Part shown: in pieces, positions 950-48,700 of the stretch
How the letters are laid out: each line of letters begins with the position of its first letter
How positions within the stretch are numbered: the first letter of the stretch is position 1
Assembly (NCBI GenBank): GCA_051313645.2
Contig: JBNRSN020000019.1
Coordinates: forward strand, 35,340,001-35,404,000
Direction of reading: 5' to 3'
DNA length: 64,000 nucleotides
Origin: Centroscyllium fabricii
Taxonomy: Eukaryota
The notes under the pieces: generated by a model
Database searches by the model: none
The model's input: the letters and a program-made list of their open reading frames with translations, nothing else
What the model was told of the DNA's origin: nothing
Position numbers and translations under genes: made by a program

Positions 950-1329
950 AGAAAAAAAAGAAGGGCTTACATTTATATAGCGCCTTTTGATGTATCGTCA
1001 ATATCTTCGATTAAAAGAGTCGACGCGTAGTTACCGAAACTAAAGGCTTTTAATTGCTAAGAACGGAGCTACTCTCCAGACGAACTACAGTACAGGAATG
1101 AAGGAGCCTCGGTCAGATCCCACCTATAACAGGGCCTCACCTGGGGGAGGAGTTGGAGGTGTGGCTGACCTGGCTCCCAACAGTGTCACAGTATACAGGG
1201 CTGTGCCTAACATCTGCACAGCCCCTCATTAGCCATAATGGTACAGCGGTATGGTAGACATACAATGGTTACCACATTCACCCCTTCTTAAAAACTTTGA
1301 GTCCGGGGGGGGTGAATGGGTCGAACAGT

Positions 1330-4300
1330 TCACGATAAGTCTGTCCGGCGGTCGTGTCTGCCTGGAGGACCGCCGGCGCTCCGGTGTTGGTGGTGGTGCC
1401 TCCTGGGTCGAATAGCCCGCATCTGCCGGCGCTGTGACTTCAGGTGGCGGTGGGCTCGGCTGGCCCCGCCGTCCGGGTCGTAGTCGGGGAAACTCCGGGG
1501 CCATCGTGCGTCTGGTGGTTGATCGGCCTGCTGGCCGGCCGGGGGCTCTGCGGTGGTGCTTCCTGCGGGAGCCAGGTCCCTGATGGACACGGTGTCCTCA
1601 CGCCCGTCCGGGAACTGCACGAAGGCGTAGTGTGGGTTCGCGTGTAGGAGCTGTACCTTGTCCACCAGGGGGTCCGTCTTGCGGCTCCGGACATGCCTTC
1701 TAAACAAAACCGGCCCCGGAGTCGTCAGCCATGGAGGGAGAGCTGTCCCCGAAGTTGACCTCCTGTTAAAAGAGAAAATCAGATCGTGCGGGGTGGCTTT
1801 AGTGGCAGTACATAACAGAGAGCGTATAGAGTGCAGCGCGTCTGGGAGGACTGCCTGCCAATGGGACACTGGAAAGCCTCTGGACTTGAGAGCCAGGGTG
1901 ACCGCCTTCCAGATAATCCCATTCTCCCTTTCTACCTGGCCGTTCCCCCGGGGGTTATAACTGGTTGTTCTGCTCGTGGCAACCCCTTTCTGGAGCAGAA
2001 ACTGGCGCAGTTCATCGCTCATGAACGATGACCCCCGGTCGCTATGGATGTAGCTGGGGAGACCGAAAATGGCGAACAGCGCGGTGAAGTGTTTGATCAC
2101 CGTTGCGCTCGTCATGTCTGGGCAGGGGAAGGCGAAGGGGAAGCGGGAGAACTCATCCACTACCGTGAGGAAGTATGAGTTGCGGTCGGTGGAAGGGAGG
2201 GGGCCTTTGAAGACCACGCTGAGACGTTCAACGGGGCGGGTGGCCTTAATGAGGTGCGCCGTGTCTGGCCGGAAAAAGTGGGGTTTGCACTCGGCGCAGA
2301 CAGGGCACTCTCGGGTCATAGCCTTAATCTCCGTGATGGAGTAGGGGAGGCTACGAGATTTGACGAAATGAGCAAGTCTGGTGACACCCGGGTGGCAAAG
2401 GCGGTCGTGGAGGTCCTTCAGCCGGTCTAGCTGGGCACTGGCGCACGGTCCCCTGGACAGTGCGTCCGGGGGTTCGTTGAGTTTGCCTGGTCGGTAAAGA
2501 ATGTCGTACTCGTAAGTCGAGAGTTCGATCCGCCACCGCAGGATCTTATCATTCTTGATTTTACCCCGTTGTTTATTGTTAAACATAAACGCCACCGACC
2601 GTTGGTCGGTGAGCAGGGTAAAACACTTACCGGCCAGGTAATGACGCCAGTAGCGCACGGCCTCCACGATGGCCTGGGCCTCCTTTTCCACTGCTGAGTG
2701 GCGAGTTTCGGGTCCCTGTAAGGTGCGGGAGAAAAACGCTACGGGCCTGCCTGCCTGATTCAGGGTGGCAGCAAGGGCAAAGTCCGAAGCGTCACTTTCC
2801 ACCTGGAAATGGATGGATTCATCAACAGCGAGCATGGTCGCCTTGATAATATCTTCCTTTATCCTTGCGAATGCCGTTTGGGATTCTACAGAAACGGGGA
2901 AGACGGCAGCCTTGAGGAGTGGTCTAGCCTTATCTGCGAACTGTGGGACCCATTGTGCATTATAGGAGAAAAATCCTAGGCATCTCCTCAAGGCTTTGGG
3001 GTTGTGAGGTAGGGGCAGTTCTAGCAGGGGTCGCATACGCTGTGGGTCGGGGCCGAGGAGCCCGTTCTCCACCACGTATCCGAGGATGGCGAGCCGGGCT
3101 GTATTAAAGACACATTTGTCCTTGTTATACGTAAGGTCCAGCCTGTCCGCCGTGGCGAGAAATTTGGCCAGATTGGCATCGTGGTCCTGCTGGTCGTGGC
3201 CGCAGATGGTCACATTGTCCAGGTAAGGGAAAGTGGCCTGCAAGTCGTTTTGGTCAACCATACGGTCCATCTCCCGTTGGAACACTGACACTCCGTTGGT
3301 CACGCCAAAGGGGACTCGGAGGAAGTGGTAGAGCCGACCGTTCGCCTCGAAGGCGGTGTAGGGGCGGTCGGCTTTCCGAATCGGGAGCTGATGATACGCC
3401 GATTTAAGGTCGATCGTAGAGAACACCTTGTACTGGCCGATCTGATTGACCATTTCCGAGATGCGGGGGAGGGGGTAGGCGTCGAGCCCGGTGTAGCGGT
3501 TGATAGTCTGGCTGTAATCGATAACCAGCCGCTGTTTTTCGCCAGACTTCACCACTACCACTTGGGCGCGCCAGGGGCTGGTGCTGGCTTCAATTATCCC
3601 CTCCTTCAGCATCCGCCCGACCTCCGACCTGATAAACGTGCGATCCCCCTCACTGTACCGCCGACTCTTAGTGGCAATGGGTTTGCACTTCGGATCGAGG
3701 TTGGCGAACAGCGAGGGGGGGTCGATTCTCAGGGTGGAGAGGCCGCAGGCCGGGCTCCGCTTTGGGGGGAGATTGTCCCGGCTACTGACGGTGAAGGGGG
3801 GTAAGGTCCCGCCGAACTCCATTGTCACGCTCCTGAAGTGGCACTGGAAATCCAAACCTAGTAAGGCTGGGGCACACAACTGTTGGAGGATATACAATTT
3901 AAAATTACGGTACACGCGCCCCTTGACGGTGAGCATGACGGAGCAGTAGCCGGTGACGTCCGCGGTGTGGGACTGTGAAGCTAGGGAGACTTGGTAGTTG
4001 GTGGGCAGGACCTGCAGTCCGCAGCGCCGCACTGTATCAGGGTGAACGAAACTCTCAGTGCTGCCTGTGTCGAAAAGGCAGTCGACAGTGTGATTATTAA
4101 TGGTAATCGACATTATGGAGTTAGACAGGGTATGGGGCCTGCCCTGGCTAACTCTGATTCTGGCTGCCACAGCCCCTGCTGATCGGGGCTGTGCACAAGA
4201 TGGCGGCGCCCCTGGCTCGCACGTGGAGGGGCCCTGGATACAAGATGGCGGCGCCCCTGGCTCGCACTTGGAGGGGCCCTGGATACAAGATGGCGTTGCC

Positions 4301-5481
4301 TCTGGCTCGCACATGGAGGGGCCCTGGATACAAGATGGCGGCACCCCTGGCTCGCACATGGAGGGGCTCTGGTTACAAAATGGCGTTTCCGAGGGGACGC
4401 ACACGGTGGGGCCCTGTGAACGCGCTGGCGGCGCCCGTGATTCGCACGCAGCGAACCGCGGTGATTGGGTTGGCGGTGCCCGTGATTCGCACGCAGCGGG
4501 CCGCGGTGGTCGGGTTGGCGGTGCCCGTGATTCGCACACAGCCGGCCACGTTGGGGGGTCGCGCTTGGCCGGCCTTTGCCGCATCGGGGTGGGGGATGGG
4601 AGCGCTTGTTGTCTACCCCCATACCGTCGCTGGATCGCGCTGCTATTGCAGCTTACCTGGTGTCTGTCGGTGCTCTCACAGGCTGCACTGTTGTACCTTG
4701 AGTTGGGCGCTGCTGGAGCTGATCTGCAGGCTTTAGCGTAGTGTCCCTTCTTCGCACATTTCTCGCAGGTCGCTGTCCTGGCTGGGCATTTCGCTCTAGG
4801 GTGCAGTCCCTGGCTGCAGAAGTAGCAGCGTTTATCTTTAGTGTCTTTAGTGGCCGTCGCGGCCATCGTGGGGGCCTCGACCCGTTGCGCCCAGGCCTGG
4901 GCCTGTTGTGGCGCGGCCCATATGTTGTAGGCTTGCGGGTTAGTGCCGCTGTACGCCTGTAACTTGCTTCGGGTCCCCTCTACTGATTTGGCTATCGTAG
5001 TCGCCTCCTCGAGGGATAATTCGTCTTTCTCTAGTAGCCGCTGGCGGGCTTCCACACACCTCAGTCCTGTAACATAAGCGTCCCGAACGAGGAGTTCTTC
5101 CTCCTCTTCAACTGTTGTGCCTTTGCAGCCACAGACCCGTACCAGGGCCAGGAGCGCTTGCTCAAACTCCTCATTGGACTCACCCGGTAGCTGAGATCTG
5201 GTCGCCAGCACATGTCGGGCGTAGACTGAATGGACCGGGCGCTCGTAACATTTCTTCAGAATTTGTACAGCCGCTACGTAGGTTGAGGCGTTCCTGATGA
5301 GGGTGAATACCCTGCTGGAGATCCTCGATCGTAGGACATGCAGCTTGTCCCTGTCTGATGTAGCCTTGGCGGCGTCCATGTAGGCCTCCAGGAGGCCGAA
5401 CCAGTGTTCGTAGGTGGCGGCAGCAGCAGGGTCCTGGGGACTGATGTCCAGCTTCTCAGGTTTAACTGTGCTGCTCTCCAT
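1330..5481 (-). CDS. Gag-Pol polyprotein, 1383 aa (Gag zinc knuckles, protease, RT, RNase H, integrase)
   Basis: CEKCAKKGHYAKAC; LFDTGS; IDLKSAYHQ; YLDN; ESDASD..EKEAQA; HHCC; SDRG..GQVER. First integrase Asp is mutated (RLSVVF vs RLSVDF in siblings); 1-bp frameshift near 1470 changes the C-terminus. Confidence 0.95.
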   Translation of the reverse strand: MESSTVKPEKLDISPQDPAAAATYEHWFGLLEAYMDAAKATSDRDKLHVLRSRISSRVFTLIRNASTYVAAVQILKKCYERPVHSVYARHVLATRSQLPGESNEEFEQALLALVRVCGCKGTTVEEEEELLVRDAYVTGLRCVEARQRLLEKDELSLEEATTIAKSVEGTRSKLQAYSGTNPQAYNIWAAPQQAQAWAQRVEAPTMAATATKDTKDKRCYFCSQGLHPRAKCPARTATCEKCAKKGHYAKACRSAPAAPNSRYNSAACESTDRHQVSCNSSAIQRRYGGRQQALPSPTPMRQRPAKRDPPTWPAVCESRAPPTRPPRPAACESRAPPTQSPRFAACESRAPPARSQGPTVCVPSETPFCNQSPSMCEPGVPPSCIQGPSMCEPEATPSCIQGPSKCEPGAPPSCIQGPSTCEPGAPPSCAQPRSAGAVAARIRVSQGRPHTLSNSIMSITINNHTVDCLFDTGSTESFVHPDTVRRCGLQVLPTNYQVSLASQSHTADVTGYCSVMLTVKGRVYRNFKLYILQQLCAPALLGLDFQCHFRSVTMEFGGTLPPFTVSSRDNLPPKRSPACGLSTLRIDPPSLFANLDPKCKPIATKSRRYSEGDRTFIRSEVGRMLKEGIIEASTSPWRAQVVVVKSGEKQRLVIDYSQTINRYTGLDAYPLPRISEMVNQIGQYKVFSTIDLKSAYHQLPIRKADRPYTAFEANGRLYHFLRVPFGVTNGVSVFQREMDRMVDQNDLQATFPYLDNVTICGHDQQDHDANLAKFLATADRLDLTYNKDKCVFNTARLAILGYVVENGLLGPDPQRMRPLLELPLPHNPKALRRCLGFFSYNAQWVPQFADKARPLLKAAVFPVSVESQTAFARIKEDIIKATMLAVDESIHFQVESDASDFALAATLNQAGRPVAFFSRTLQGPETRHSAVEKEAQAIVEAVRYWRHYLAGKCFTLLTDQRSVAFMFNNKQRGKIKNDKILRWRIELSTYEYDILYRPGKLNEPPDALSRGPCASAQLDRLKDLHDRLCHPGVTRLAHFVKSRSLPYSITEIKAMTRECPVCAECKPHFFRPDTAHLIKATRPVERLSVVFKGPLPSTDRNSYFLTVVDEFSRFPFAFPCPDMTSATVIKHFTALFAIFGLPSYIHSDRGSSFMSDELRQFLLQKGVATSRTTSYNPRGNGQVERENGIIWKAVTLALKSRGFPVSHWQAVLPDALHSIRSLLCTATKATPHDLIFSFNRRSTSGTALPPWLTTPGPVLFRRHVRSRKTDPLVDKVQLLHANPHYAFVQFPDGREDTVSIRDLAPAGSTTAEPPAGQQADQPPDARWPRSFPDYDPDGGASRAHRHLKSQRRQMRAIRPRRHHHQHRSAGGPPGRHDRRTDLS
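4190..4550 (-). repeat. In-frame 42- and 45-bp tandem repeats in the Gag-protease linker
   Basis: (AACESRAPPxxxxx)x3 and (CEPGAPPSCIQGPSx)x4; copy A2 (43860-44160) has one fewer 45-bp unit. Confidence 0.9.
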
Positions 5482-5876
5482 TTTAAAATAATTAGCAATT
5501 AAAATTGACGTATCGTCAATATCTTCGATTAAAAGAGTCGACGCGTAGTTACCGAAACTAAATGCTTTTAATTGCTAAGACGGAGCTACTCTCCAGACGA
5601 ACTACAGTACAGGAATGAAGGAGCCTCGGTCAGATCCCACCTATAATGGGGCCTCACCTGGGGGAGGATTTGGAGGTGTGGCTGACCTGGCTCCCAACAG
5701 TGTCACAGTATACAGGGCTGTGCCTAACATCTGCACAGCCCGTCATTAGCCATAATGGTACAGCGGTATGGTAGACATACAATGGTTACCACACCTTTCA
5801 CGACCACAGGACGTTTCAAAGCGCTTTACAGTCAATTAATTAATTTTGAAGTGGAGTCACTGTTGTAATGTGGGAA

Positions 5877-6432: not shown

Positions 6433-6742
6433 TGTTAAGTCCGCGCTATCAAGTGATAATAACTGCGGACTAGACTCCAAAGGTACGAAACCAAAGAGAT
6501 GTTTCTTCTACATTACAGAGTCTGGAACTGAGCACATCGCTCCTCACTCGAACTTATATACAGCAGTGGTGAACCGCGGTACTGCAATATCCTGGCACTA
6601 CATAAAGTAGTGCCCAGTATAAGCCTTAATGGGACATACACCACATTCTTCCCCTCTTAATTAACCTTTACAGTACAACAATCAGTATATGAGGAGGACT
6701 AACAAAACTATTTACAATTTATAGTGTCAGTTTCTGTGGAGG

Positions 6743-9195: not shown

Positions 9196-12100
9196 TGTGA
9201 CCGAAATAACGACCTCGTGGACGAGTAGTTAGAAGGGTGAAACAATACGGCTTTTATTCGCTAAATGGTGGACATGCACCAGCTAGTCGACCGTCCCCAG
9301 GAATGGCTGGGGGATGGGAGACGGCCGCTTATATACCTCTTCCTGGGAGGGAGGAGTCACGGGCGGAGCCAGCATGGGCATGTCCAGGTTATGTACATCA
9401 TGAATATAGGTACGATTACAGAGATACATAATGGGGTGGGTATATACAAGGAAACAGTGGTTTACCACATTCACCCCTTCTTTAAAACAAAAGTCCGGTG
9501 GGGTGAACGCGACAGTTCTTTTAATTTACAAATTAAGTCGCTCCGGCGGCCTGGTGATCCTGGTTGAGCGTCGCACCGCTGGTGGTGTCAGCGGTCGTGG
9601 AGTGGCCGGTCGGGTTGGTTGCATCGATGGTGATGATGCCGGTTGGCGAGCGGTGGTTGATAACGTCGGTAGGTTTCTGGTTGGTGCCCTTGTAGTGACA
9701 GTAGGAGGCGCGCTCTCTCCCTCGTCGTCTGACTCTAGGGGGCGTGTACTGTGGAGCCATGCTGGAGGCCATGCCGTGCTGCCCGCAGGTGCCGGGTGGA
9801 CATACCGGGGTGCTGGGTTCTCGTGCCGGGGAGCGTACCTTGGCGCCAGTGGCCCGGGTGGCGTGGCTGGCCGCGGTGGCCCGGGTGGAGTGGCTGGCCG
9901 TCTTGGGTGCGCGGGCTGCTGGGCGGGGCTGGGTTTGGGGGCTCCCGCTGGTGCCAGGTCCTTGATGGACACGGTGTCCTCCCTCCCGTCGGGGTACGCC
10001 ACGTAGGTGTACTGGGGATTGGCGTGCAGGAGGTGGACCCGTTCGACCAGGGGATCTGCCTTGTGGCCCCTCACGTGCTTCCGTAGTAGGACTGGTCCTG
10101 GGGATAGCAGCCACGATGGTAGCGAGGTCCCGGAAGCCGACTTCCTGGGGAAGGCAAAAAGTCGCTCAGATGGAGTGGAGCGCTTCGGGGAGGACGTCCT
10201 GCCAGCGGGAGACTGGGAGGCCTTTGGACCGTAGGGCTAACAAAATGGCCTTCCAGACAGTGGCGATCTCCCTCTCTACCTGTCCGTTCCCCCGGGGGTT
10301 GTAGCTGGTAGTCCTGCTAGTCGCGATGCCTTTGGCTAGCAGAAACTGACGCAGCTCGTCACTCATAAAGGATGCCCCCCGGTCGCTATGGATATAGCTG
10401 GGATAGCCGAACAGGGAGAAGATGCTGTGGAGGGCTTTGATGACCGTGGCGGAGGTCATGTCCGGGCAGGGGATGGCAAAGGGGAAGCGGGAGTACTCGT
10501 CAATTACGTTGAGGAAGTACACATTTCTGTTGGAGGAGGGAAGGGGTCCTTTGAAATCGACACTGAGTCATTCAAAGGGGCGAGTGGCCTTGATCAAATG
10601 CGCCCGGTCTGGCCGATAGAAGTGCGGCTTGCACTCCGCACAGACCTGGCAATTGCTGGTCAGGGTCTTGACCTCCTCGATGGAGTAGGGGAGGTTGCGG
10701 GACTTCACAAAGTGAACCAACCTGGTGACCCTCGGGTGGCAGAGGTCATTGTGTAGGGTTTGGAGACGGTCTGTCTGTGCGCTGGCACAGGTACCGCGGG
10801 ATAGGGCATCTGGGGGTTCGTTAAATTTCCCGGGCCGGTACAAGATATCGTAATTGAACGCGGAGAGTTCAATTCTCCACCTTAATATCTTGTCGTTCTT
10901 GATTTTACCCCGCTCTTTGTTGTTGAACATAAAAGCGACTGAGCGTTGGTCAGTCAGCAGGATAAATCGCTTGCCGGCCAGGTAGTGCTTCCAGTGACGC
11001 ACTGCTTCAACGATAGCTTGGGCCTCCTTCTCAACGGAAGAGTGACGGGTCTCGGGGCCCTGGAGGGTACGCGAGAAGAAGGCCACGGGTCTGCCCGCCT
11101 GGTTAAGTGTGGCGGCCAGGGCAAAGTCCGATGCATCGCTCTCTACCTGAAATGGAACGGACTCGTCCACGGCGTGCATCGTTGCCTTCGCAATGTCGTC
11201 CTTAATGCCGCAGAACGCCGTGCGGGCATCTGCTGACAGGGGGAATGAGGTTGATTTAAGTAGTGGGCGAGCTATGTCCGCGTAATTGGGGACCCACTGG
11301 GCATAATAGGCAAAGAAACCCAAGCACCGTTTAAGGGCCTTGGGGGAGTGGGGGAGGGGGAGCTCCATGAGGGGGCGCATGCGGTCCGGGTCGGGACCGA
11401 TGACCCCATTCTCCACAACACTGCCGAGGATGGCAAGGCGGGTGGTACTGAACACACATTTTTCAGTGTTGTACGTCAGATTGAGTGTTTTGGCGGTGTG
11501 GAGAAATTTCTGGAGGTTGGCGTCATGGTCCTGCTGATCGTGGCCGCAGATGGTCACGTTATCGAGGTACGGGAAAGTGGCTCGCAGCCCGTACTGATCG
11601 ACCATTCGGTCCATCTCCCTTTGGAAGACCGAGACCCCATTCGTGACGCCAAACGGGACCCTGAGGAAGTGGTAGAGGCGGCCGTCAGCCTCGAAGGCAG
11701 TATAGAGACGGTCCTCTGGGCGAATGGGAAGCTGGTGATATGCGGACTTCAGATCTATGGTGGAGAACACCCGGAACTGCGCGATCTGATTCACCATGTC
11801 CGCTATCCGGGGGAGGGGGTATGCGTCTAGCTGGGTGAACCGATTGATGGTCTGACTGTAGTCCACTACCATCCGGATCTTCGCTCCGGTTTTCACCACC
11901 ACTACCTGCGCCCTCCAGGGGCTATTACTGGCCTCGATAACCCCCTCCTTCAGGAGGCGCTGCACCTCGGACTTGATAAAGTCCATGTCCCCAGCACTGT
12001 AGCGCCTACTCTTGGTGGCGATGGGCTTGCAGTCTGGGGTGAGGTTGGCAAAGAGTGAGGGAGGGGCAACCTTAAGGGTCGAGAGGCCACAGGTAGCGCG

Positions 12101-13780
12101 CCGGGGGTGCTGCGCCGAGCGCCGGTTGCTGACCGTGAGCGAGGGAAGGGGCCCACCGTACGCCATGGTAACGCTTTGGAGATGGCACTGGAAGTCCAGA
12201 CCCAATAGTAATGGAGCGCAGAGCTGCGGTAGCACGAAAAAGCTAAAATTACTAAAGTGCACGCCCTGCACCGTTAGAGCCACTGCGCAACGCCCGGAGA
12301 CGTCCGCAGATTCTGATTTGGAAGCCATTGAAATCTTTTGGCTCGCTGGCATGACCTTAAGGGAGAGGCGCTTTACTGTCTCAGGATGAACAAAACTCAC
12401 CATGCTCCCACTATCGAAAAGGCACACCACGTCCTGTCCGTTCACTCCCACCGGCATCATCGATTTCCCGAGCGATTGGGCCTTGTTCTGGTCCAGAGTC
12501 ACCGATGCCAATATTGGGTCAGCCGATTCCTCTTGATTCGAAGAGAAGTCCTCCGGGGCCGGTTCCCAAGATGGCTGCTGCCATGCGGTGTACTGCAGAG
12601 GGGGTGGCTGGGTCCAATATGGCGACTGCTGCCACGCGGGGTGCTGAGTGGGGGATGGTTGAGTCCAATATGGCTGCCCCCAGGTTCCACACGCGGCGCT
12701 GCCCGGTTTCGGTTTAGGGGCTGTGATCGCCTTACAGACTTTGGCGTAATGTCCCTTCTTTCCACATTTTGAGCAGGCCGCTTCTCTTGCCGGGCAGCTA
12801 CGTCTCGGATGCTGAGACTGCCCGCAGAAGTAACATTTTGCCGTCTTAGCGTGAGCGGCTGCGATCATTTCTTCCGCCGGCCGTTGTGCCGGCGCTGTTC
12901 AAGATGGCGGGGCTGGGCCCGTATAATTGCCGGAGTATGACGATAGGTTTAGTGAGGCCACGTCCAGCGCATTGCCCAGATCCACTGTTGCCTGCAGGTC
13001 AAGGCCGTTCTGCTCTAACAGCCTCTGTCTCATATAGTCCGACCTGAGGCCTGTAACATATGCGTCTCTAATTAGACTGTCCACATGGATCTGGGCCGAT
13101 TGCGCTCTGCAGTCACAGGCCCGTGAAAGCACTCTCAGCGCTCTTAAAAATTCCACGCTGGACTCACCGGGTTGCTGCTTCCTGGTGGCTAGGATGTGTC
13201 TGGCGTGGACGATATTGGGTGCCCGGTTGTACTCTGCCTTGAGGATCCTTATAGCATTCAAAAATGATGATGCGTCCACGATCATGGAGTACACCTGAGG
13301 GCCCACCCGGGCATTGAGGAGCCGCCGTTTGTCCTCTTCGGTCCTGACGACCACTGCGTTCGCTCTCAGGTACGCATCGAAACAGTCATACCAGTGCGAG
13401 AATGTGTTTGATGCGCCTGGTGTCCGGGGATCCAATTCAAACGTTGCTGGCTTGAGCATCGCGTCCATCTTCAAAATTTAGCGAATACAATTGTGATCGA
13501 AATAACGACCTCGTGGACGAGTAGTTAGAAGGGTGAAACAATACGGCTTTTATTCGCTAAATGGTGGACATGCACCAGCTAGTCGACCATCCCCAGGAAT
13601 GGCTGGGGGATGGGAGACGGCCGCTTATATACCTCCTCCTGGGAGGGAGGAGTCGCGGGCGGAGCCAGCATGGGCATGTCCAGGTAATCGCACAACAGGT
13701 TGTGTACAACATGAATATAGGTACGATTACAGAGATACATAATGGGGTGGGTATATACAAGGAAACAGTGGTTTACCACA
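9196..13780 (-). mobile_element. Full-length Ty3/Gypsy element, family D, inserted in the RT of element B
   Basis: LTRs 9196-9469 and 13492-13780; TSD TTCTG (9191-9195, 13781-13785); PPT 9470-9480; host frame LEAE|GVLSKVEW is restored on removal. Confidence 0.97.
9526..13468 (-). pseudogene. Family D gag-pol with in-frame stops (12899, 10568) and a small deletion near 10166
   Basis: ORFs 12899-13474 and 10568-12868 share a frame; CSKCGKKGHYAKVC, LFDSGS, YLDN, RNase H and integrase motifs. Confidence 0.92.
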
Positions 13781-15173: not shown

Positions 15174-15189
15174 AATTAATCATTTTGGA

Positions 15190-15410
15190 AACGTTTAAAA
15201 TGGCATCTTGTCCCGCCTTCCTGTTTCTCTCCCGGTGATTTCCCGCCTAAGATGGCATTTTTCCCGCCTTCCCGCGTCTCTTCCGGTGCTTCCCCGCCTA
15301 AGATGGTGTTTTTCCCACCTTCACGCGTCTCTTCCGGCGCTGTTCCCGCTTTAAGATGGCCTCTCCCCGCCTTCCGCATCTCTCCCGGTGCCTTACCCGC
15401 CTTAAAATGC
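15190..15410 (-). repeat. Degenerate ~50-55-bp tandem repeats in the element B leader
   Basis: Recurrent AAGATGG..TTTTCCCGCCTTC..GTCTCTTCCGG units. Confidence 0.7.
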
Positions 15411-16005: not shown

Positions 16006-16016
16006 CCTCGTCGCCA
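16006..16016 (-). promoter_or_regulatory. Primer binding site of element B, tRNA-Ser(GCU) type
   Basis: TGGCGACGAGG one base after the 5' LTR; complementary to a tRNA 3' end CCUCGUCGCCA. Confidence 0.82.
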
Positions 16017-16146: not shown

Positions 16147-19100
16147 TGTGATGAACCTTTTGGTGTGGTTCACACTGTACGGTTATTGTATATAGTTTTG
16201 TTTAATGTGTTTGCTATATATCTGTTAATATCTGTACCTTTCTGTAAGGACCTGTACTGGCTGACCCTGCCTCTGGGTACTAGTATAAAGGAGAATGCTC
16301 CGCCCACTTATCTCTCATTCCAGGCTGGCTCATCGGGGACACGGTTCAGTTCCTTGTGAATAAAAGCCACTTATTTAAGAACTCGCTGCCGTCTTTGATT
16401 TGAGGCATCTCAATTTTATTCACAAGGATTTTTTAAATGAGCCAGCAGAATGAATATCTCCAGCCAGTCAACGCAGTCTATGCTCGCCATCTACTCGTCA
16501 CGCGGCGGCAACAGTGTGGTGAGTCGAATGAGGATTACCTGGAGGCTCTTCAAGCTCTCGTTCTGCGCTGCGGATGCGCCCCGTTAACGCCCAGGAGCAC
16601 ATGGACCTCCTCGTCCGTGATGCCTACGTGGCAGGCATCAGATCAGCCCCAGCCCGCACCCGCCTACTCGAGCAGGATAATTTATCCCTAAATGAGGCGG
16701 TGAAGCTTTCCAACGCAGTAGATGGGGCCCTCCGGAGCCTAGATTCGTACACGGGGCACGGCTCCCACACGGTTTCCCCTAGGCCTTGGGACTCGCGTTC
16801 GACGCCATCGACGGCGACCGTGGCGGCCACGGCGCCATCCAGAAAGCCAGCGCCTCCGAAATGCTTTTTCTGCGGCCAGAAACGCCATCCACGAAGCTCC
16901 TGTCCAGCGAAGGCATCTTCCTGCTCCAAATGTGGCAAGAAGGGCCATTTTGCGAAGGTCTGCCGATCGGCCCCGGAATCAGCACGGAAAACAGCAGCGG
17001 CCTGCAATGTCCACGCCACAGAGTGGCCTCAGGTACCTAGCGCCCCCCAACGGTGGCCCTCTGAACGATTGCCACCTACCTTGCCTCAGATGCGGTCTGC
17101 CAACGTCGTTTCCCGCGCTCCGCCATCTTTGGGGGCGCGGGCATCTTCTTCCTCGCTCGTTTCCTGCGCTCCGCCATCTTTAGGAGCACGGGCACCTTCT
17201 TCCTCGCCGATTCGGCGTGAAACGCGGGCGCTGTCGGGTATCCTGGCAGCAGCGGCAGCGTCCCAGCACAGGGCGCCGCCATCTTTGGTGCGGTCAACTC
17301 GCATCCTGGCAGCAGCGGCCCCGCCCCGTCACATGACGCTGCCATCTTGGATACGGGCAACTCGCCTCCTGGCAGCAGCGGCCCCGCCCCAGCCCAGGGC
17401 ACCGCCCTCTTTGTTTAAGGCAAGCTTACCGACGCAGGCAGCAGCAGCAACAGGCAGCCCTGGAGAAACTCCAATGATCCTGGCAGCAGCGACAGGCAAC
17501 TCCAGGGCAATTCAGCATTCTGGCGCTTGTGCGCCACGAGCCCTTCGGTCCTCCCAACGGCTTTCTCAGCGACCCACCCAGCGGTTCTCCCAATGGCCCG
17601 AAACGCCACCGCGGCCCGCCGCATGCGAATCACGGACGCCGCCATCGCTCGCGGACCCTGCATTGCACAAGGGCCCCAGCACGCACACCACATTTGCCTC
17701 TGCGGCCCTCAACCAGTATCTCATGTCATCGATGATGCCCATCCGGGTAGAGGGGCACCTCACCCGATGTCTGTTCGACACTGCGAGTACGGAGAGCTTC
17801 ATACACCCTGATACGGTGCGCCGTTATTCCCTCAGGGTTAGGCCCACACATCGTAAAATCTCCCTCGCCTCCGAGTCCCAGACTGTGGACGTCATCGGCT
17901 GCTGTACAGTCACTATTACCGTGAAGGGGACGACATACCGCAACTTTCAACTGTACGTCCTCCCACAGCTCTGCGCCCCTGTGTTGCTTGGCCTGGACTT
18001 CCAGTGCAATCTGCAGAGCGTGACGATGGCATACGGCGGTTCCCTGCCTCCTCTCACGGTCAGCAGCCGTGACTGCCCTGCCTCACAACCACGCTCCTCT
18101 TGCGGTCTGTCTACCTTGAAGATAGACCCCCCCTCGCTGTTCGCCAACCTTGACCCTGACTGCAAGCCCATTGCAACCAAGAGTCGGCGATACAGCGCGG
18201 GGGACCGCACCTTTATCAAGGCAGAGGTTGCTCAGTTGTTGCAGGAGGGCATCCTCGAGGCCAGTAACAGCCCGTGGCGGGCCCAGGTGGTGGTGGTTAA
18301 GTCTGGTGACAAACAGCGCATGGTCATCGACTATAGCCAGACTATTAACCGCTATAATGGGCTCGACGCTTATCCGCTTCCTAGAATCAATGACATGGTC
18401 AATCAGATTGCCCAGTATAAGGTCTTCTCCACCATCGACCTTAAGTCGGCCTATCACCAGCTCCCCATCAGAGCTGAGGACCGTAAATACACTGCCTTCG
18501 AGGCAAATGGGTGTCTTTTTCACTTCCTCCGGGTCCCCTTTGGGGTTACCAACAGAGTTTCGGTCTTCCAACGAGAGATGGACCGAATGGTTGACCAGTA
18601 TGATTTGCAGGCCACATTCCCGTATTTGGACAATGTCACGATCTGCGGCCATGACCAGCAAGATCATGATGCCAATTTGGACAGGTTTCTCCATACGGCC
18701 CAGCGTCTGAACCTCACTTACAATGAGGATAAGTGCGTTTTCAACACTATCGTCGGCTACGTGGTTGAGAACGGGGTCCTCGGCCCCGACCCCGAACGTA
18801 TGCGCCCCCTTCAGGAGCTGCCCCTACCGCACTCCCCCAAAGCTTTGAGGAGATGCCTGGGGTTTTTCTCTTACTATGCACAATGGGTTCCCCATTATGC
18901 TGATAAGGCCCGGCCTCTCCTCAGGGCTACCTCCTTCCCGTTCCCGTTAGAGGCCCAAATTGCTTTTTCGCATATCAAGCAAGACATCATCAAGGCAACC
19001 ATGCACGCCATTGATGAGTCTCTCCTCTTCCAGGTCGAAAGCGACGCCTTAGACTTCGCCCTGGCCGCCACCCTAAACCAGGCAGGCAGGCCCATCGCTT

Positions 19101-20906
19101 TCTTCTCCCGTACCCTGCAGGGCCCTGAAGTCCGCCACTCTTCAGTGGAAAAGGAGGCCCAAGCAATCGTGGAAGCAGTGCGCCACTGGCGCTACTATTT
19201 GGCCGGTAAACGATTTACCCTTCTTACTGACCAGCGGTCAGTAGCATTTATGTTCCACCATAAACAGAGGGGTAAAATCAAGAATGACAAGATCCTCAGG
19301 TGGCGGATGAGTACGACATTCTGTACCGGCCAGGGAAGCTTAACGATCCCCCGGATGCCCTGTCCCGAGGAATGTGTGCCAGCGCCCAGTCGGGTAGTCT
19401 GAACACCCTCCACGCTAATCTCTGCCACCCGGGGGTCACCAGGCTCACTCACTTCGTCAAATCACGCAATCTCCCTTATTCCATTGCGGAGATCAAGGCG
19501 ATGACGCAGGAGTGCCCTGTCTGTGCCAGCCCCAGTTTTACAGGTCTGACAGGGCGCACCTCATCAAGGCCACCCGCCCATTCGAGCGCCTGAGTGTGGA
19601 CTTCAAAGGTCCCCTTCCCTCTACCAACCGTAACTCGTACATTCTCACTGTGGTCGACGGGTTCTCCCGTTTCCCTTTTGCATTCCCATGCCCAGATATG
19701 ACGAGTGCAAGAGTGATAAAGCATTTTATCACGCTATTCGTCATTTTCGGCCTTCCCGGCTTCATGCACAGCGACCGGGGGTCCTCATTTATGAGTGACG
19801 AACTCCATCATTTTCTGCTTGTGAGAGGGGTTGCCTCGAGCAGAACGACCAGTTACAACCCCCGGGGGAACGGTCAGGTAGAACGTTATAATGGGACCAT
19901 CTGGAAGGCCATCACCCTGGCCCTTTGATCCAAAGGCCTTCCAATCTCCCATTGGCAGGAGGTCCTCCAGGATGCGCTCCACGCTACCCGCTCCCTCTTG
20001 TGCACAGCCACCGGTTGCACACCTCACGAGAAACTCTTCTCTTTCCCTAGGAACTCGACTTCGGGGACGTCTCTGCCGACGTGGCTTACCAACCCGGGGC
20101 CGGTTTTGCTTAGAAGGCATGTCCGTGGACACAAGACGGACCCTCTTGTCGAACGTGTGCGCCTGCTGCATGCCAACCCTCAGTATGCCTACGTGGCGTA
20201 CCCAGACGGGTGTGAGGATACCGTCTCGATTAGAGACCTTGCGCCCGCTGGAGCCGTTCACTCTGAGTCGTTGGCGGATCCCTTGCCCTCCCAGGTCACA
20301 TTTTCACAACAGGGGCCGTCTTTTCATTCACCTGCGCACACTACATCGGGGCCCTCGTCACTCCCAATGCATGATGGAGCTCATCATGTTGCTCAGCCTA
20401 CTCTTCCGGCGGCTGCTACACCTCCACCAGATCTTCCTGTGCCTGAGGTACCTCTTCCACCGGTGGAGTCTCTGTTCACGTTGGGAGCCCCGTCAGCGTC
20501 TTTTCCGATTACGACTACTCCCACTTCTTCGCCAGAACCGACACTGCCTCGCCGATCTGATCGGACTGTTAAACCTCCACAAAGACTTATAACACAGCGC
20601 TGATATTCGCCCTGCGGGACTTGTTTTTAAGGAAGTGGTGAATGTGATGAACCTTTTGGTGTGGTTCACACTGTACGGTTATTGTATATAGTTTTGTTTC
20701 ATGTGTTTGTTATATATCTGTTAATATCTGTACCTTTCTGTAAGGACCTGTACCGGCTGACCCCACCTCTGGATACTAGTATAAAGGAGAATGCTCCGCC
20801 CACTTATCTCTCATTCCGGGCAGGCTCATCGGGGCACGGTTCAGTTCCTTGTGAATAAAAGCCACTTATTTAAGAACTCGCTGCCATCTTTGATTTGAGC
20901 ATCTCA
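16147..20906 (+). mobile_element. Ty3/Gypsy element, family E, inserted in the 5' LTR of element B
   Basis: LTRs 16147-16412 and 20643-20906; TSD TACAA/TACAG (4 of 5 match); PPT AAGGAAGTGGTGAA 20629-20642; TATAAA at ~16284. Confidence 0.96.
16437..20603 (+). pseudogene. Family E gag-pol, frameshifted, Gag N-terminus shortened
   Basis: ORFs 16437, 16574, 19300, 19512 and 19998 carry CCHC, LFDTAS, YLDN, RNase H and integrase motifs. Confidence 0.92.
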
Positions 20907-40655: not shown

Positions 40656-43600
40656 AGACATATTACATTAATACCAGATTGATATCATTTGGTGAATTGT
40701 ACCCAGCTGATTTATATTACTCATGGATGCACTCAGACATCTTTTCTTGAACGTCTTTGTATTGATTCCAATTCACCTAAGAAAATTATTTTAAAAAACC
40801 CCGATTTGATGGTGTAATTTTCCTGTTTCTATCTTATGTCTGAAATGACTTCCACTCATTCAATTTTACACAGTCATTACCATTTCAACTCATTCATAAG
40901 CCCTGGAGGAACTTTACTTTCCAATATAATATTATTGATGTAAAACATAGATTAAATGTTCCTTTCCAAGTTATTAACACATTTTGTTTGTTTATTTTAA
41001 TTAACTGAAGCTCTTCTTAGACCTTTTATTTCCCAAAATATTGTGCTTGAGTTGATTTTATCTTTTCAAAATCCAAAGAACAGTATTGCTGGACTGACAG
41101 GATTTGTCAATGTTCAATTTTATTTCCCCCCAAAACTTTCTTCCTTGACACACAGCATTGGGCGTGAACCACCACGACTTCCCTCCTCTCTTTTCTATGA
41201 ATGAAAATGTGACTATGTAGGAATTGCCGAATTCCTACGAAAAAACGGAGATCCACACAGGAGCACAATCAACTGGTCTTTACTTCAAGAAAAAGCTGCA
41301 GTGGCTGTCTGGGCAGCCCCGTGGTTTGCGACGTGACGTCATCACGTTTGCCCGCGTTTTCCCACACTCTTAAAGGGGCCACGCCCCGGACATACAAACA
41401 CTATATACAAAACACAGTAATGCCTAACACAATGGTACAGGTTTAGGCTGGTGTTAGAACATCGTTAAAGGGAATTATATACAGTTAGCCAGAGTCATTC
41501 AGTGGTCCTGCCACATGTGCTCCCCCAGAATTCGCTTTAATGGACAAAGTCAAATGGTGAGGGGCGTCTGATGAGCCTGTCAGAACGACTCCTGTACTCT
41601 CGAGGCGGAGGCTGCTGGACAGCTGGCGGTCTGGCGGGCGGTCGCACTTGGTCTGCCGTAACGACGATGGGCAGCCGATCCCGCCTCGGTGGTTGTGCTG
41701 TCTCGACGGGGCGGTCGGGGTCTAAATGTGCTGGCTTTAAGCGGTCGACCGAGATGTGGTCCAGTTTAACACCGACGTCGACGGTGAAGGTTTTGTCCCC
41801 TCCTTCCAAAACGTAGAAGGGTCTGGTGTATGGGGCCTTGAGCGGATACCTATATGCGTCATGGTGAATAAAAACATATTCCGCCTTGTGAAGCTCCGTG
41901 GTAATGTCTGACTTCTGAAGCCCGTGGTGTGAATCGAGCACCGGTGCAAAACATCTGCCCGCCTCTTGGTGACTAGCAAGCTGGGCAGATGCAGACCATG
42001 GCTCCATCGATGTTAGCAGGAAGTCCCCCGGAACTTGCAGTGGCTGACCATACACAAGCTCCGCTGATGAAGAGTGAAGGTCTTCTTTGGGGGCCATGCA
42101 AAGGCCCAACAGGATCCACGGTAGCTTGTCTACCCATCCAGCATCCTGGCCCTCAGGGCGGCTTTCATTGACCAGTGGAAACGTTCGCAGAGGTCATTCG
42201 CCTGTGGGTGGTAGGCTGCGGTGTGGTGCAATTTGACACCGAGTCCTTGGGCCACTGCTTTCCAGAGTTCAGAGGAAAACTGCGGTCCCCTGTCGGACGA
42301 AATATCTGCGGGCACTCCGAAACGGGCGATCCAGGAGGAAAGAAATGCCCTGGCCTGTCGGCCAAAGTTGTGGATGACAGGGGAACCGCCTCCGGCCATC
42401 TGGTGGTGCGGTCAACCATGGTCAGGATGTGTGAAAAATCATGGGAGGGTGGGAGTGGTCCTACCAGGTCCACATTGACATGGTCAAAACGTTGCTCCAG
42501 AACTGTGAAGGTGGCCAACGGTGCTTTGATGTGATGCTGAACCTTGGCCCTTTGGCAGACCACGCAGGTGTTGGCCCAGTCGCGGACATCTTTGTGTATG
42601 CCATGTGTGGTAACCCTTTTATGTCTGTTCTACCACTGTACCATTATGGCTAATAATGGGCTGTGCAGATGTTAGGCACAGCCCTGTATACTGTGACACT
42701 GTTGGGAGCCAGGTCAGCCACACCTCCAACTCCTCCCCCAGGTGAGGCCCGTTATAGGTGAGATCTGACTGAGGCTCCTTCATTCCTGTACTGAAGTTCG
42801 TTCCGGAGGGTAGCTCCATTCTTAGCAATTAAAAGCCTTTAGTTTTGGTAACTACTCGTCGACTCTTTTAATCGAAGGTATTGACGATACGTCAATTTTA
42901 ATTGCTAATTATTTTTTAAATGGAGAGCAGCGCAGTTAAACCTGAGAAGCTGGACATCAGTCCCCAGGACCCTGCCGCTGCCGCCACGTACGAACACTGG
43001 TTCGGCCTCCTGGAGGCCGACATGGACGCCGCCAAGGCTACAACGGACAGGAACAAGCTGCATGTCCTACGATCGAGGATCTCCAGCAGGGTATTCACCC
43101 TCATCAGGAACGCCTCATCCTACGTAGCGGCTGTACAAATTCTGAAAAAATGTTACGAGCGCCCGGTCCATTCTGTCTACGCCCGACATGTGCTTGCGAC
43201 CAGATCTCAGCTACTGGGTGAGTCCAATGAGGAGTTCGAGCAAGCGCTCCTGGCCTTGGTGCGAGTCTGTGGCTGCCAAGTCAGAACAGCTGAAGAGGAG
43301 GCAGAACTCCTCGTTCGGGACGCCTATGTTACAGGACTGAGGTGTGTGGAAGCCCGCCAGCGGCTACTAGAGAAAGACGATTTATCCCTCGAGGAGGCGA
43401 CTAAGATAGCCAAATCAGTAGAGGGGGCCCGAAGCAAGTTACAGGCATACAGCGGCACTAACCCGCAAGCCTACAACATATGGGCCGCGCCACAACAGGC
43501 CCAGGCCTGGGCGCAACGGTCCGAGGCCCCCACGATGGCCGCGGCGGCCACTAAAGACACTAAAGACAAGCGCTGCTACTTCTGCAGCCAGGGACTGCAC

Positions 43601-44671
43601 CCAAGAGCGAAATGCCCAGCCAGGACAGCGACCTGCGAGAAATGTGCGAAGAAGGGACACTACGCTAAGGCCTGCAGATCAGCTCCAGCAGCGCCCAACT
43701 CAAGGTACAACAGTGCAGCCTGTGAGAGCACCGACAGACACCAAGTAAGCTGCAATAGCAGTGCGATCCAGCGACGGTACGGGGGTAGACAACAAGCGCC
43801 CCCAACCCCCACCCCGATGTGGAAAAGGCCGGCCAAGCGCGACCCCCCAACGCGGCCGGCTGCGTGCGAATCACGGGCACCGCCAACTCGACCAGCGCGG
43901 CCCGCTGCGTGCAAATCACGGGCACCGCCAACCCGACCACCGCGGTCCGCTGCGTGCGAATCACGGGCGCCGCCAGCGCGTCCACAGGGCCCCACCATGT
44001 GCGTCCCCTCGGAAACGCCATTTTGTACTCAGGGCCCCTCCATGTGCGAGCCAGGGGCGACGCCATCTTGTATCCAGGGCCCCCCTATGTGCGAGCCAGG
44101 GGCGCCGCCATCTTGTATCCAGGGCCCCACCATGTGCGAGCCAGGGCCGCCGCCATCTTGTGCGCAGCCCCGATCAGCAGGGGCTGCGGCAACCAGAATC
44201 AGAGTTAGCCAGGGCAGGCCCCATACCCTGTCTAACTCCATAATGCCGATTAACATTAATAACTACACTGTCGACTGCCTTTTCGACACAGGCAGCACTG
44301 AGAGTTTCGTTCACCCTGATACAGTGCGGCGCTGCGGGCTGCAGGTCCTGCCCACCAACTACCAAGTCTCCCTAGCTTCACAGTCCCACACCGCGGATGT
44401 CACCGGCTACTGCTCCGTCACGCTCACCGTCAAGGGGCGCGTGTACCGTAATTTTAAATTGTATACCCTCCAACAGTTGTGTGCCCCAGCCTTACTAGGT
44501 TTGGATTTCCAGTGCCACTTCAGGAGTGTGACAATGGAGTTCGGCGGGACCTTACCCCCCCTCACCGTCAGTAGCCGGGACAATCTCCTCCCAAAGCGGA
44601 GCCCGGCCTGCGGCCTCTCCACCCTGAAAATCGACCCCCCCTCGCTGTTCGCCAACCTCGATCCGAAGTGC

Positions 44672-45796
44672 GGCGCGCATGGACGCAGCGGCCTTGCGTC
44701 TCCCGAGGAAATGATGTCCGCTGGTCCCCGTACTGGTTCTGAGCGTGGCCCGAGCCCGAGCCGGTAACATCAAGGCTGTTGGGGCTGGAGCCTGCGTGGC
44801 CCGAGCATTGGGGCTGGAGCGTCGGCCCGTCGGGCCCTGAGCATCGGGGCTGGAGCGTCGGGCCGTCGGGCCCTGAGCATCGGGGCTGGAGCGTCGGCCC
44901 GTCGGGCCCTGAGCATCGGGGCTGGAGCGTCGGCCCGTCGGGCCTTGAGCATCGGGGCTGGGGCGTCGGCCCGTCGGGCCCTGAGCATCGGGGCTGGGGC
45001 GTCGGCCCGTCGGGCCCTGAGCATCGGGGCTGGGGCGTCGGCCCGTCGGGCCCTGAGCATCGGGGCTGGGGCGTCGGCCCGTCGGGCCCTGAGCATCGGG
45101 GCTGGAGCGTCGGCCCGTCGGGCCCTGAGCATCGGGGCTGGGGCGTCGGCCCGTCGGGCCTTGAGCATCGGGGCTGGAGCGTCGGCCCGTCGGGGGGGCC
45201 ATTATGGACCAGACTGGGACTTGCAGGAGAGGACATTTTGATGTCTGTTATTTCTTTGGGGGATTCCGGAGAAAGATGGCGGCGCGTGTACACGCAGCGG
45301 CTTTGCGTCTCCGGAGGTAACGCTGTCCGCTGCAGTTCTGGGTCTGTTCGCTCGGAGAGGACGGCATGGTCGGCGAGGTGGTGTACCGGGGTCGGCGCGG
45401 CGGAGTTGTCGGAGCACCGGGGTGTCTGCGGTCGGAGTATCGGGGCGCACTGAGGCCAGCATGGTCGGAGCGCCGAGGCCGGAGGCCTTGAGGACTGAGT
45501 GTTGTAGCCGGAGCCTGAGCCTGCGAGGTCGCTGAAGTCGGGGCGCCTGGCCCTGTGTGGGTGGAGTGCCGGGGCCTTGGTCGCCGAGGTCGGAGCGCCG
45601 GAGCCTGCGTGGTTGTGACGCCGGAGGTCGGCGAGTTCGTATTGCCCGGGCCTGTATGGTTGGAACACCGGGACTGACAGACTGGGACTTCAGTAGAGGA
45701 CATTTAACATCAGCGTTAACATTTGCAAAACTACATTTCGTTGTATGGTAAAAAATAGCTGTACAATGACAAATAAATTGAAATTGAATTGAATTG
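44672..45796 (+). mobile_element. Non-coding dimeric retroposon with 36-bp VNTR and Rex1-like 3' tail
   Basis: Absent from copy A1; ends TTCGTTGTA..ACAATGACAAATAAATTGAAATTGAATTGAATTG. Confidence 0.8.
44800..45195. repeat. 36-bp GC-rich minisatellite, 11 copies
   Basis: Unit CCTGAGCATCGGGGCTGG(A/G)GCGTCGGCCCGTCGGGC. Confidence 0.96.
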
Positions 45797-48700
45797 CTAC
45801 TAAGAGTCGGCGGTACAGTGAGGGGGATCGCACGTTTATCAGGTCGGAGGTCGGGCGGATGCTGAAGGAGGGGATAATTGAAGCCAGCACCAGCCCCAAG
45901 TTGTAGTGGTGAAGTCTGGCGAAAAACAGCGGCTGGTTATCGATTACAGCCAGACTATCAACCGCTACACCGGGCTCGACGCCTACCCCCCTTCCCCGCA
46001 TCTCGGAAATGGTCAACCAGATCGCCCAGTACAAGGTGTTCTCTACGATCGACCTTAAATCGGCGTATCACCAACTCCCGATTCGGAAAGCCGACCGCCC
46101 CTACACCGCCTTCGAGGCGAACGGTCAGCTCTACCACTTCCTCCGGGTCCCCTTTGGCGTGACCAACGGGGTGTCAGTGTTCCAACGAGAGATGGACCGT
46201 ATGGTTGACCAAAACGACTTGCAGGCCACTTTCCCTTACCTGGACAACGTGACCATCTGCGGCCACGACCAGCAGGACCACGATGCCAATCTGGCCAAAT
46301 TCCTCGCCACGGCGGACAAGCTGGACCTTACGTATAACAAGGACAAATGTGTCTTTAATACAGCCCGGCTCGCCATCCTCGGATACGTGGTGGAGAACGG
46401 GCTCCTCGGCCCCGACCCACAGCGTATGCGACCCCTGCAAGAACTGCCCCTACCTCACAACCCCAAAGCCTTGAGGAGATGCCTAGGATTTTTCTCCTAT
46501 TATGCACAATGGGTCCCACAGTTCGCAGATAAGGCTAGACCACTCCTCAAGGCTGCCGTATTCCCCCTTTCTGTAGAAGCCCAAACGGCATTCGCAAGGA
46601 TAAAGGAAGATATTATCAAGGCGACCATGCTCGCTGTTGATGAATCCATCCCTTTCGAGTTGGAGAGCGACGCTTCGGACTTTGCCCTTGCTGCCACCCT
46701 GAATCAGGCAGGCAGGCCCATAGCGTTTTTCTCCCGCACCTTACAGGGACCCGAAACTCGCCACTCAGCAGTGGAAAAGGAGGCCCAGGCCATCGTGGAG
46801 GCCGTGCGCTACTGGCGTCATTACCTGGCTGGTAAGCGCCTTACCCTGCTCACCGACCAACGGTCGGTGGCGTTTATGTTTAACAATAAACTACGGGGTA
46901 AAATCAAGAATGATAAGATCCTGCGGTGGCGGATCGAACTCTCGACTTACGAGTACGACATTCTTTACCGACCAGGCAAACTCAACGAATCCCCGGACGC
47001 ACTGTCCAGGGGAACGTGCGCCAGTGCCCAGCTCGACCGGCTGAAGGACCTCCACGACCGCCTTTGCCACCCGGGTGTCACCAGACTCGCCCACTTCATC
47101 AAATCTCGTAGCCTCCCCTACTCCATCACGGAGATCAAGGCTATGACCCGAGAGTGCCCTGTCTGCGCCGAGTGCAAACCCCACTTTTTCCTGCCAGACA
47201 CGGCGCACCTCATTAAGGCCACCCGCCCCTTTGAACGTCTCAGCGTGGACTTCAAAGGACCCCTCCCTTCCACCGACCGCAACTCATACTTCCTCACGGT
47301 AGTGGATGAGTTCTCCCGCTTCCCCTTCGCCTTCCCCTGCCCAGACATGACGAGCGCAACGGTGATCAAACACTTCACCGTTTTCGGTCTCCCCAGCTAC
47401 ATCCATAGCGACCGGGGGTCATCGTTCATGAGCGATGAACTGCACCAGTTTCTGCTCCAGAGAGGGGTTGCCACGAGCAGAACGACCAGTTATAACCCCC
47501 GGGGGAACGGCCAGGTAGAAAGGGAGAATGGGATCATTTGGAAGGCGGTCACTCTGGCTCTCAAGTCCAGAGGCCTTCCGGTGTCCCATTGGCAGGCAGT
47601 CCTCCCAGACGCGCTGCACTCTATACGCTCTCAATTATGTACTGCCACTAATGCCACCCCGCACGATCTGATTTTCTCTTTCAACAGGAGATCGACTTCG
47701 GGGACAGCTCTTCCTCCATGGCTGACGACTCCGGGGCCGGTTTTGCTTAAAAGGCATGTCCGGAGCCACAAGACGGACCCCCTGGTGGACAAGGTACAGC
47801 TCCTACACGCAAACCCGCACTATGCCTTCGTGCAGTTCCCGGACGGGCGTGAGGACACCGTGTCCATCAGGGACCTGGCTCCCGCAGGGAGCAGCACCGC
47901 AGAGCCCCCGGCCGGCCAGCAGGCCGATCAACCACCAGACACACGATGGCCCCTGAGTTTCCCCGACTACGACCCGGACGGCGGGGACCAACCGAGCCCA
48001 CTGCCACCTGAAGCCACAGCGCCGGCAGACGCGGGCGATTCGACCCAGGAGGCACCACCACCAACACCGGAGCGCCGGCAATCCTCCAGGCAGACACGAC
48101 CGCCGGACAGACTTATTGTGAACTGTTCGACCCATTCACCACCCCCGGACTCAACGTTTTTAAGAAGGGGTGAATGTGGTAACCCTTTTATGTCTGTTCT
48201 ACCACTGTACCATTATGGCTAATAATGGGCTGTGCAGATGTTAGGCACAGCCCTGTATACTGTGACACTGTTGGGAGCCAGGTCAGCCACACCTCCAACT
48301 CCTCCCCCAGGTGAGGCCCATTATAGGTGAGATCTGACCGAGGCTCCTTCATTCCTGTACTGAAGTTCGTTCCGGAGGGTAGCTCCATTCTTAGCAATTA
48401 AAAGCCTTTAGTTTCGGTAACTACTCGTCGACTCTTTTAATCGAAGGTATTGACGATACGTCACCATGCCATACAAATTTCGCTGACATCAGTTCCTGGG
48501 AGGCCTTCATTCCCGGGTGTGACAACCCATGTATGGCATCGAACACTTTGCGGCACCAAATGACCGGCACAACAGGGCGAGGATCCTGTATGGAGACATC
48601 ACACAACAGCGTGGTAGCTGCCGAATGGAACTTGACGTCGGTCAGCTGGAGGCTGGTGACGGCCGTTCTGTAAGCTTGGACCTCCGGGTCTGAAGCTTGA

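Follow-up and report, generated by a model that had tools for sequence, protein, structure and literature searches.

The YxDD motif of reverse transcriptase (RT) is treated as invariant, and the substitution of its last aspartate by asparagine blocks transposition of Ty1 and Ty3. The 64,000-nucleotide stretch of Centroscyllium fabricii DNA analysed here (hereafter the window) contains four LTR retrotransposons that read YLDN at this motif and that lack a tRNA-type primer site, raising the question whether an RT with asparagine at this position can carry an element through its cycle in vivo and whether the substitution is tied to the unusual primer site. In Ty3 RT, metal binding depends on D151 and D213; a D214N enzyme still polymerises, though less processively, but the substitution abolishes transposition (PMC5371799). 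Ty1 D211N also keeps polymerase activity, with kpol down 223-fold and preference shifted to Mn2+, and loses transposition, of which suppressors in RNase H restore 5-10% (PMC2148107). The comparison with Ty1 D211N made in an earlier note on this DNA is correct, and Ty3 D214N behaves alike. The window elements carry the same substitution at the same position and keep both metal-binding aspartates; whereas the laboratory mutants do not transpose, the natural elements appear to have transposed on a very large scale.

A six-frame scan of the window finds six YxD[DN] RT motifs, four YLDN (elements A1-A4) and two YLDD (elements B and C), in the following setting:

988..5793, (-) strand: element A1; LTRs 5506-5793 (5') and 988-1276 (3'); TSD CCTTT
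1330..5574, (-) strand: A1 gag-pol in a single frame, 1414 aa stop to stop, Gag-PR-RT-RNase H-IN
3225-3214, (-) strand: A1 RT motif C, YLDN, residues 784-787, TAC CTG GAC AAT; Asn codon 3216-3214
3409..3411, (-) strand: A1 RT motif A aspartate D722 in IDLKSAY, kept (alignment)
3289..3291, (-) strand: A1 V762, replacing the motif B proline (NGV vs. Ty3 NAP; alignment)
2605..2793, (-) strand: A1 RNase H catalytic residues D928, E965 and D990, all kept
5492..5504, (-) strand: A1 primer-site tract TTTTAATTGCTAA, without TGG, 1 base past the LTR terminal CA, complementary to the element's own LTR
5566..5578, (-) strand: A1 LTR arm TTAGCAATTAAAA, with a poly(A)-signal-like hexamer at its end, pairing with 5492..5504
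9196..13780, (-) strand: element A2, nested in element B; TSD TTCTG; pol broken over several frames
13562-13551 with 13487-13476, (-) strand: A2 LTR/primer-site complement, 12 bp
11569-11558, (-) strand: A2 RT motif YLDN, TAC CTC GAT AAC
16147..20906, (+) strand: element A3, inside an LTR of element B; TSD TACAA/TACAG; 4-codon deletion downstream of the motif
16351-16365 with 16414-16428, (+) strand: A3 LTR/primer-site complement, 15 bp
18623-18634, (+) strand: A3 RT motif YLDN, TAT TTG GAC AAT
42606..48463, (+) strand: element A4, nested in element C; TSD CCATG
42822-42834 with 42896-42908, (+) strand: A4 LTR/primer-site complement, 13 bp
46237-46248, (+) strand: A4 RT motif YLDN, TAC CTG GAC AAC
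8794-8783, (-) strand: element B RT motif YLDD (distant gypsy, 27% identity)
16016-16006, (-) strand: element B TGG-type primer site TGGCGACGAGG
49556-49545, (-) strand: element C RT motif YLDD (distant gypsy, 29% identity)
51492-51483, (-) strand: element C TGG-type primer site TGGTGACCCC

The earlier note had placed the four YLDN motifs, with their codons, exactly as found here, but had omitted that those at 3225-3214 and 11569-11558 lie on the (-) strand; it was also right that elements B and C, which have TGG-type primer sites, keep YLDD. Its description of the LTRs as near-identical holds best for A1 and A4, with LTR-pair identities of 97.6% and 99.0%, and less well for A2 (93.2%) and A3 (95.9%); TSDs are perfect 5-mers in three of the four elements and match at 4 of 5 positions in A3.

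A1-A4 are mutually related, env-less Ty3/gypsy LTR retrotransposons. They have the TG...CA LTRs, polypurine tract, short TSD and PR-RT-RNase H-IN domain order of Ty3/gypsy elements; the RT-RNase H of A1 is closest to Ty3 among solved structures (E 2e-46; Ty3 4OL8), and a Pfam search at E 0.001 gives no env or chromodomain match in A1. The consensus YxDD, which is typical of Ty3/gypsy elements and not group-defining, is absent, with YLDN in its place. Alignment to Ty3 RT equates the Asn of YLDN with the second Asp of Ty3 YLDD and shows the motif A Asp to be kept. A1 Gag has two zinc knuckles (read by eye from the translation), and A1 integrase has DD(35)E spacing, with 35 residues between D1179 and E1215; its first catalytic position is a non-acidic residue in the A1 copy, and some lesion is present in each of A1-A4.

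Across the 7.2-Gb genome, an exact pattern matches YLDN 214,286 times, vs. 296 times for YLDD, 464 for YLDS and 2,371 for YLNN, and reversed patterns give 0 matches genome-wide; a looser pattern, applied to the whole genome, gives 234,525 Asn vs. 479 Asp. YLDN is present in >99% of pattern-matching genomic copies, and YLDD is rarer than YLDS, the neutral single-base-change control (296 vs. 464). Of 150 scored copies, at least 80 show no difference from A1 over 100 RT residues. Comparison of A1 and A2 RT gives a dN of 0.12 and a pS of 0.75, with synonymous sites saturated (dN/dS values for A3 were discarded because its 4-codon deletion breaks the ungapped comparison). A passively carried, dead gene would not give a dN of 0.12 with saturated dS, and the RT is under purifying selection between Asn families. 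Every window copy has a lesion, and function is therefore argued from the family and not from single copies. The earlier note had held that the Asn is conserved and not a product of decay, and the genomic counts (214,286 vs. 296) bear this out; its argument from the use of two Asn codons is weak by itself, because AAC before GTG forms a CpG that decays to AAT. We conclude that, judged from the sequences, the Asn is an inherited family state and not decay.

The YLDN family is a major component of the genome. Its motif has a density of ~1 per 31 kb (234,525 in 7.2 Gb) and falls into several codon-level subfamilies. Intactness pipelines that require YxDD would misclass possibly 15-19% of the genome, an estimate obtained from 234,525 motif copies × 4.6-5.9 kb with full-length copies assumed. 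Among the 100 Asp matches listed for the looser pattern, 28 come from a distinct YLDD family within the clade, which is small (roughly 130 copies by extrapolation) and ~55% identical to A1. Thirty fetched YLDD point variants include no pair above 96.8% identity, as set against an Asn comparison set that is biased (30 loci, one subfamily), and it is suggestive that no young burst of Asp-revertant copies is visible. Loci of the small YLDD family (L184-L193, contig C1) have 220-bp LTRs and an LTR-complementary hairpin site. A second Asn family in the genome (L194-L197) has the context YLDNITVAG, is ~56% identical to A1 and lies on a different branch.

Relatives of the A elements carry both residues. 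The best 120 of 1,122 homologues comprise 94 with YxDN, 26 with YxDD and none with another motif, and the first motif C Asp is present in 120/120; the nearest named homologues, at 78-81% identity, are from sharks and rays. Cluster representatives, 150 in number, were sorted by identity: at ≥40% there are 83, of which 33 have Asn, 46 have Asp and 4 read otherwise or are unreadable, and at lower identity there are 67, every one with Asp (Asn 0/67). On a tree restricted to rows covering ≥300 residues and reading DD or DN, with distant rows thinned and the trait column dropped, 24 site changes are needed over 221 rows, and at least 23 over the 206 clade rows; a 48-row IQ-TREE tree needs 12. A single clade of the 22 Asn rows is rejected (p-AU 3.8e-65, IQ-TREE, with P0168 left out of the group). 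Asp families adjoin Asn sisters on well-supported branches (P0099/P0100, P0035/P0028, P0077+P0063), and Asp, too, occurs at family level: every readable member of the P0060 cluster (8/8) has it. When the tree is rooted on distant gypsy elements, nearly all basal members of the clade (38-46% identity) have Asp, and some Asp families branch from inside Asn groups, so changes have probably occurred in both directions. We conclude that the site switches repeatedly between Asp and Asn.

According to the hypothesis that the Asn is tied to tRNA-less priming, Asn and the unusual primer site should go together. In A1-A4, a tract 1 base past the 5' LTR complements, over 12-15 bp, an arm of the LTR whose last bases are the poly(A)-signal hexamer, and 0/1000 shuffles equal this complement for each of the four elements (for A1, none reaches 13 bp). 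The match between primer site and arm is family-specific. Predicted TATA and Inr-like sites place the putative transcription start ~35-45 nt upstream of the arm. The hairpin is a putative self-primer of reverse transcription and may instead, or in addition, mask the 5' poly(A) signal. Hairpins were scored in loci with upstream DNA, all of them above the basal, nearly all-Asp members (38-46% identity), and were found in 16/30 Asn-type and 3/11 Asp-type loci of other organisms, the misses including truncated or decayed contigs, and in 2/3 copies with an LTR pair (10 fetched) of the YLDD family of this genome. When related hairpin loci are merged, five Asn groups and four Asp families remain. The Asp families are 46-50% identical to each other, and one of them is the family in the C. 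fabricii genome. Because four YLDD families share the LTR-complementary primer site, Asn is not required for tRNA-less priming. The claim of the earlier note that every member of the tRNA-less lineage has YLDN is contradicted by these four families, by the 26 YxDD members among the 120 closest homologues and by the at least 23 changes at the site.

The converse association is exclusive in the material sampled: family-level Asn was found, among the sampled Ty3/gypsy sequences, only within the hairpin-primer clade. The earlier note had considered that YLDN might be common in tRNA-primed relatives; family-level Asn occurs in 0/67 distant representatives and 0/118 relatives of L149, a TGG-primed element that reads YIDN. 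L149 was rejected as a tRNA-primed YxDN family, since 117/118 of its relatives are YxDD and 1 is unreadable, family-level Asn is 0/118 and a 92% identical relative reads YIDD; its YIDN looks like decay. Since the Asn is nested in the hairpin clade, the overlap amounts to one phylogenetic contrast, in which cause and shared history are inseparable. An indirect link between Asn and priming is possible.

Complements of this kind, 12-18 bp long and with arms ending in AATAAA, ATTAAA or TTAAA, are present also at L061-L063, L065-L068, L097, L105, L136, L142, L144, L186, L193, L194 and L196; their sequence varies by family while the complementarity stays.

Raw covariation with Asn picks out positions 939, 768, 758 and 828, with 939, in RNase H, at the top. 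None of these candidates for a single compensating residue survives comparison of 12 independent Asp/Asn pairs, in which no column co-switches with the site (best 4.7/12 among 784 tests, with low power for partial covariation). With no residue tracking Asn, any compensation must be clade-wide. The interpretation of the earlier note, a naturally compensated two-Asp polymerase possibly tied to the priming, is partly supported. Changes that both Asp and Asn members carry, and that few outgroup sequences have, include V762 (92% in Asn members, 92% in Asp members), S688 with a 1-residue insertion at the DYR motif, Q671 and T789. V762 is a candidate permissive residue, and the set, which are clade markers, is a candidate permissive background. 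The RNase H acidic triad is kept in Asn and Asp types. The predicted structure of the enzyme is a confident, ordinary RT-RNase H (pLDDT 89), with CaMV and Ty3 RT as its top structural matches; this holds at the level of the fold and has no bearing on compensation.

We consider it probable that the YLDN enzyme polymerises on its two remaining aspartates, in a clade background whose acceptance of either Asp or Asn as the third residue would not depend on the tRNA-less primer site; the unusual priming is probably not the cause of the change, which is more likely a tolerated one. By analogy with the Ty3 and Ty1 enzymes, the motif A Asp and the first motif C Asp would bind the catalytic metal, and the third Asp would stabilise the catalytic complex and affect rate, processivity and pyrophosphate handling, a role of which the Asn amide may cover enough. 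Clade-wide changes near the template/primer grip, such as Val replacing the motif B Pro, Ser together with a 1-residue insertion at the DYR motif of the fingers, and Thr two residues past the site, would lift the barrier that stops transposition of the yeast mutants in vivo; alternatively, a matched RNase H rate would do so. The elements would then copy themselves in cis. Copy number and selection are what suggest function in vivo, and the Ty1 and Ty3 enzymes what suggests the catalytic step. What counts against a two-aspartate polymerase is the effect of the Asn substitution in the yeast enzymes, a 223-fold loss of kpol in Ty1 and lethality to transposition in Ty1 and Ty3, along with the presence of a genuine, if small, YLDD family of the clade in this genome.

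The Asn might instead be favoured by, or tolerated only through, hairpin self-priming, for example if a slower polymerase is balanced against the RNase H step that would cut the primer free, with the Asp families as an alternative solution. We judge this unlikely: the confinement of Asn to the hairpin clade (0/67 representatives below 40% identity, 0/118 L149 relatives), the suppressors of Ty1 D211N in RNase H (PMC2148107) and the rank of RNase H position 939 as top raw covariate speak for it, but position 939 fails in the independent pairs, the clade-level overlap is a single contrast, the LTR-complementary primer site is present in four YLDD families too, and YVDN arose separately in nematode BEL/Pao elements (PMC554778, PMC9094657). 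A broader version, which we put forward as doubtful speculation, treats the third RT Asp as a setting tuned by evolution, in an animal clade of wide distribution whose priming would use a hairpin cut beside its own poly(A) signal, with Asn selected, and more than tolerated, as balancing polymerase vs. RNase H and the Asn form having built ~1/6 of a 7-Gb vertebrate genome.

Mobilisation in trans, in which the YLDN RT is dead or weak and a YLDD enzyme of the small related family or of an unrelated gypsy element moves the copies, would agree with the failure of the yeast Asn mutants to transpose and with the presence in the genome of the related YLDD family (~55% identity, ~130 copies extrapolated). 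It is nevertheless very improbable: strong purifying selection on RT between Asn families makes a trans-acting YLDD helper unlikely, Asn lineages across animals retain all other catalytic residues, and the 30 YLDD variants contain no pair above 96.8% identity, albeit relative to the biased Asn comparison set. The earlier note had named a YLDD consensus with mobilisation in trans as evidence that would contradict it, and the counts (214,286 vs. 296) and the purifying selection make this unlikely. It is hardly credible that Asp is present in the functional enzyme after all, whether by A-to-I RNA editing at the Asn codon, from which an Asp codon is one A-to-G change away, or by protein deamidation: edited RNA would yield YLDD progeny, yet YLDD is rarer than the neutral control, and Asn followed by Val or Ile deamidates slowly.

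The two-aspartate reading has precedents for Asn at motif C, including GDN in some viral RNA polymerases. Natural replacement of the final Asp of YxDD by Asn is known, in the form YVDN, from nematode BEL/Pao elements (Belpaoviridae), namely Cer7-Cer12 of C. elegans and Atlas of Ancylostoma (PMC554778, PMC9094657), which look intact and recently active, although their activity was left as an open question in PMC554778. The A elements are not BEL/Pao members: A1 integrase has DD(35)E spacing vs. DD(45-53)E in BEL/Pao (PMC554778), and A1 Gag has two knuckles vs. the triple Cys-His box. Because BEL/Pao is a different superfamily, YVDN and YLDN are convergent. The A elements differ from YVDN BEL/Pao elements also in lacking env, in toggling between Asp and Asn and in numbering >200,000 copies. 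Primer sites of nematode BEL/Pao elements are probably tRNA-type. The A elements resemble Mag-lineage Ty3/gypsy elements, whose hallmarks, a single gag-pol frame, short LTRs, a 5-bp TSD, a double zinc-knuckle Gag and a one-residue-longer DYxxTxN, the A elements share. Cigr-1 is placed under Mag in the supplement of PMC6238403; for Mag and Cigr-1 elements, no description of YxDN or of an LTR-complementary primer site was found in the literature searched.

In primer site, the A elements are like self-priming elements of Tf1 type: the tRNA primer site is absent and a tract past the 5' LTR complements the element's own LTR (12-15 bp). In Tf1, the pairing arm lies at the extreme RNA 5' end, where RNase H cuts it, whereas the arm of the A elements, which ends in the poly(A) signal, is predicted to lie ~35-45 nt downstream of the start. 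The self-priming chromoviruses of this type include Tf1, Maggy and Skippy (PMC6934838). For the integrase chromodomain, a further character of Tf1-type elements, A1 has no Pfam match at E 0.001. A hairpin complementary to the LTR at this site is not described in the self-priming literature searched, including PMC3601003 and PMC6934838.

Natural YxDN was therefore known already, from nematode BEL/Pao YVDN; what is new is its occurrence in Ty3/gypsy, the toggling and the very high copy number. Our search, which lay outside most subscription journals and Repbase Reports, found no report of YLDN or YxDN in Ty3/gypsy, of Asp/Asn toggling or of population-scale in vivo evidence, and prior description in sources beyond it is possible. 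More than 200,000 Asn copies together with purifying selection are strong population evidence for a two-Asp RT able to complete the full in vivo cycle, the point left open for YVDN in PMC554778. Natural sister families that differ at the site offer matched enzymes for probing the third Asp.

The distribution of the clade is wide and patchy, with records from sharks, rays, a sea anemone, insects, the nematode Trichuris suis (P0009, a close relative with YLDD) and many metagenomes; a scan of viral contigs gave no relative. Animal-clade elements also occur in bacterial MAG contigs (L141-L148), where they are annotated as if bacterial; the MAG bins are thus likely contaminated with host DNA. Within the window, the nested insertions span 6459-20906 (A2 in B, A3 in B's LTR) and 41215-51794 (A4 in C), and a fifth A-like fragment, without the polymerase motif, lies at 36932-38515. 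The Gag C-terminal region contains 45-nt tandem repeats in A1 (4094-4600) and A4 (43864-45266), with an additional 36-nt tandem array in A4. A 333-aa frame at 55769-56770 with a GDSL lipase/SGNH match, upstream of a non-LTR RT frame at 57543-59681, is likely a LINE ORF1 esterase.
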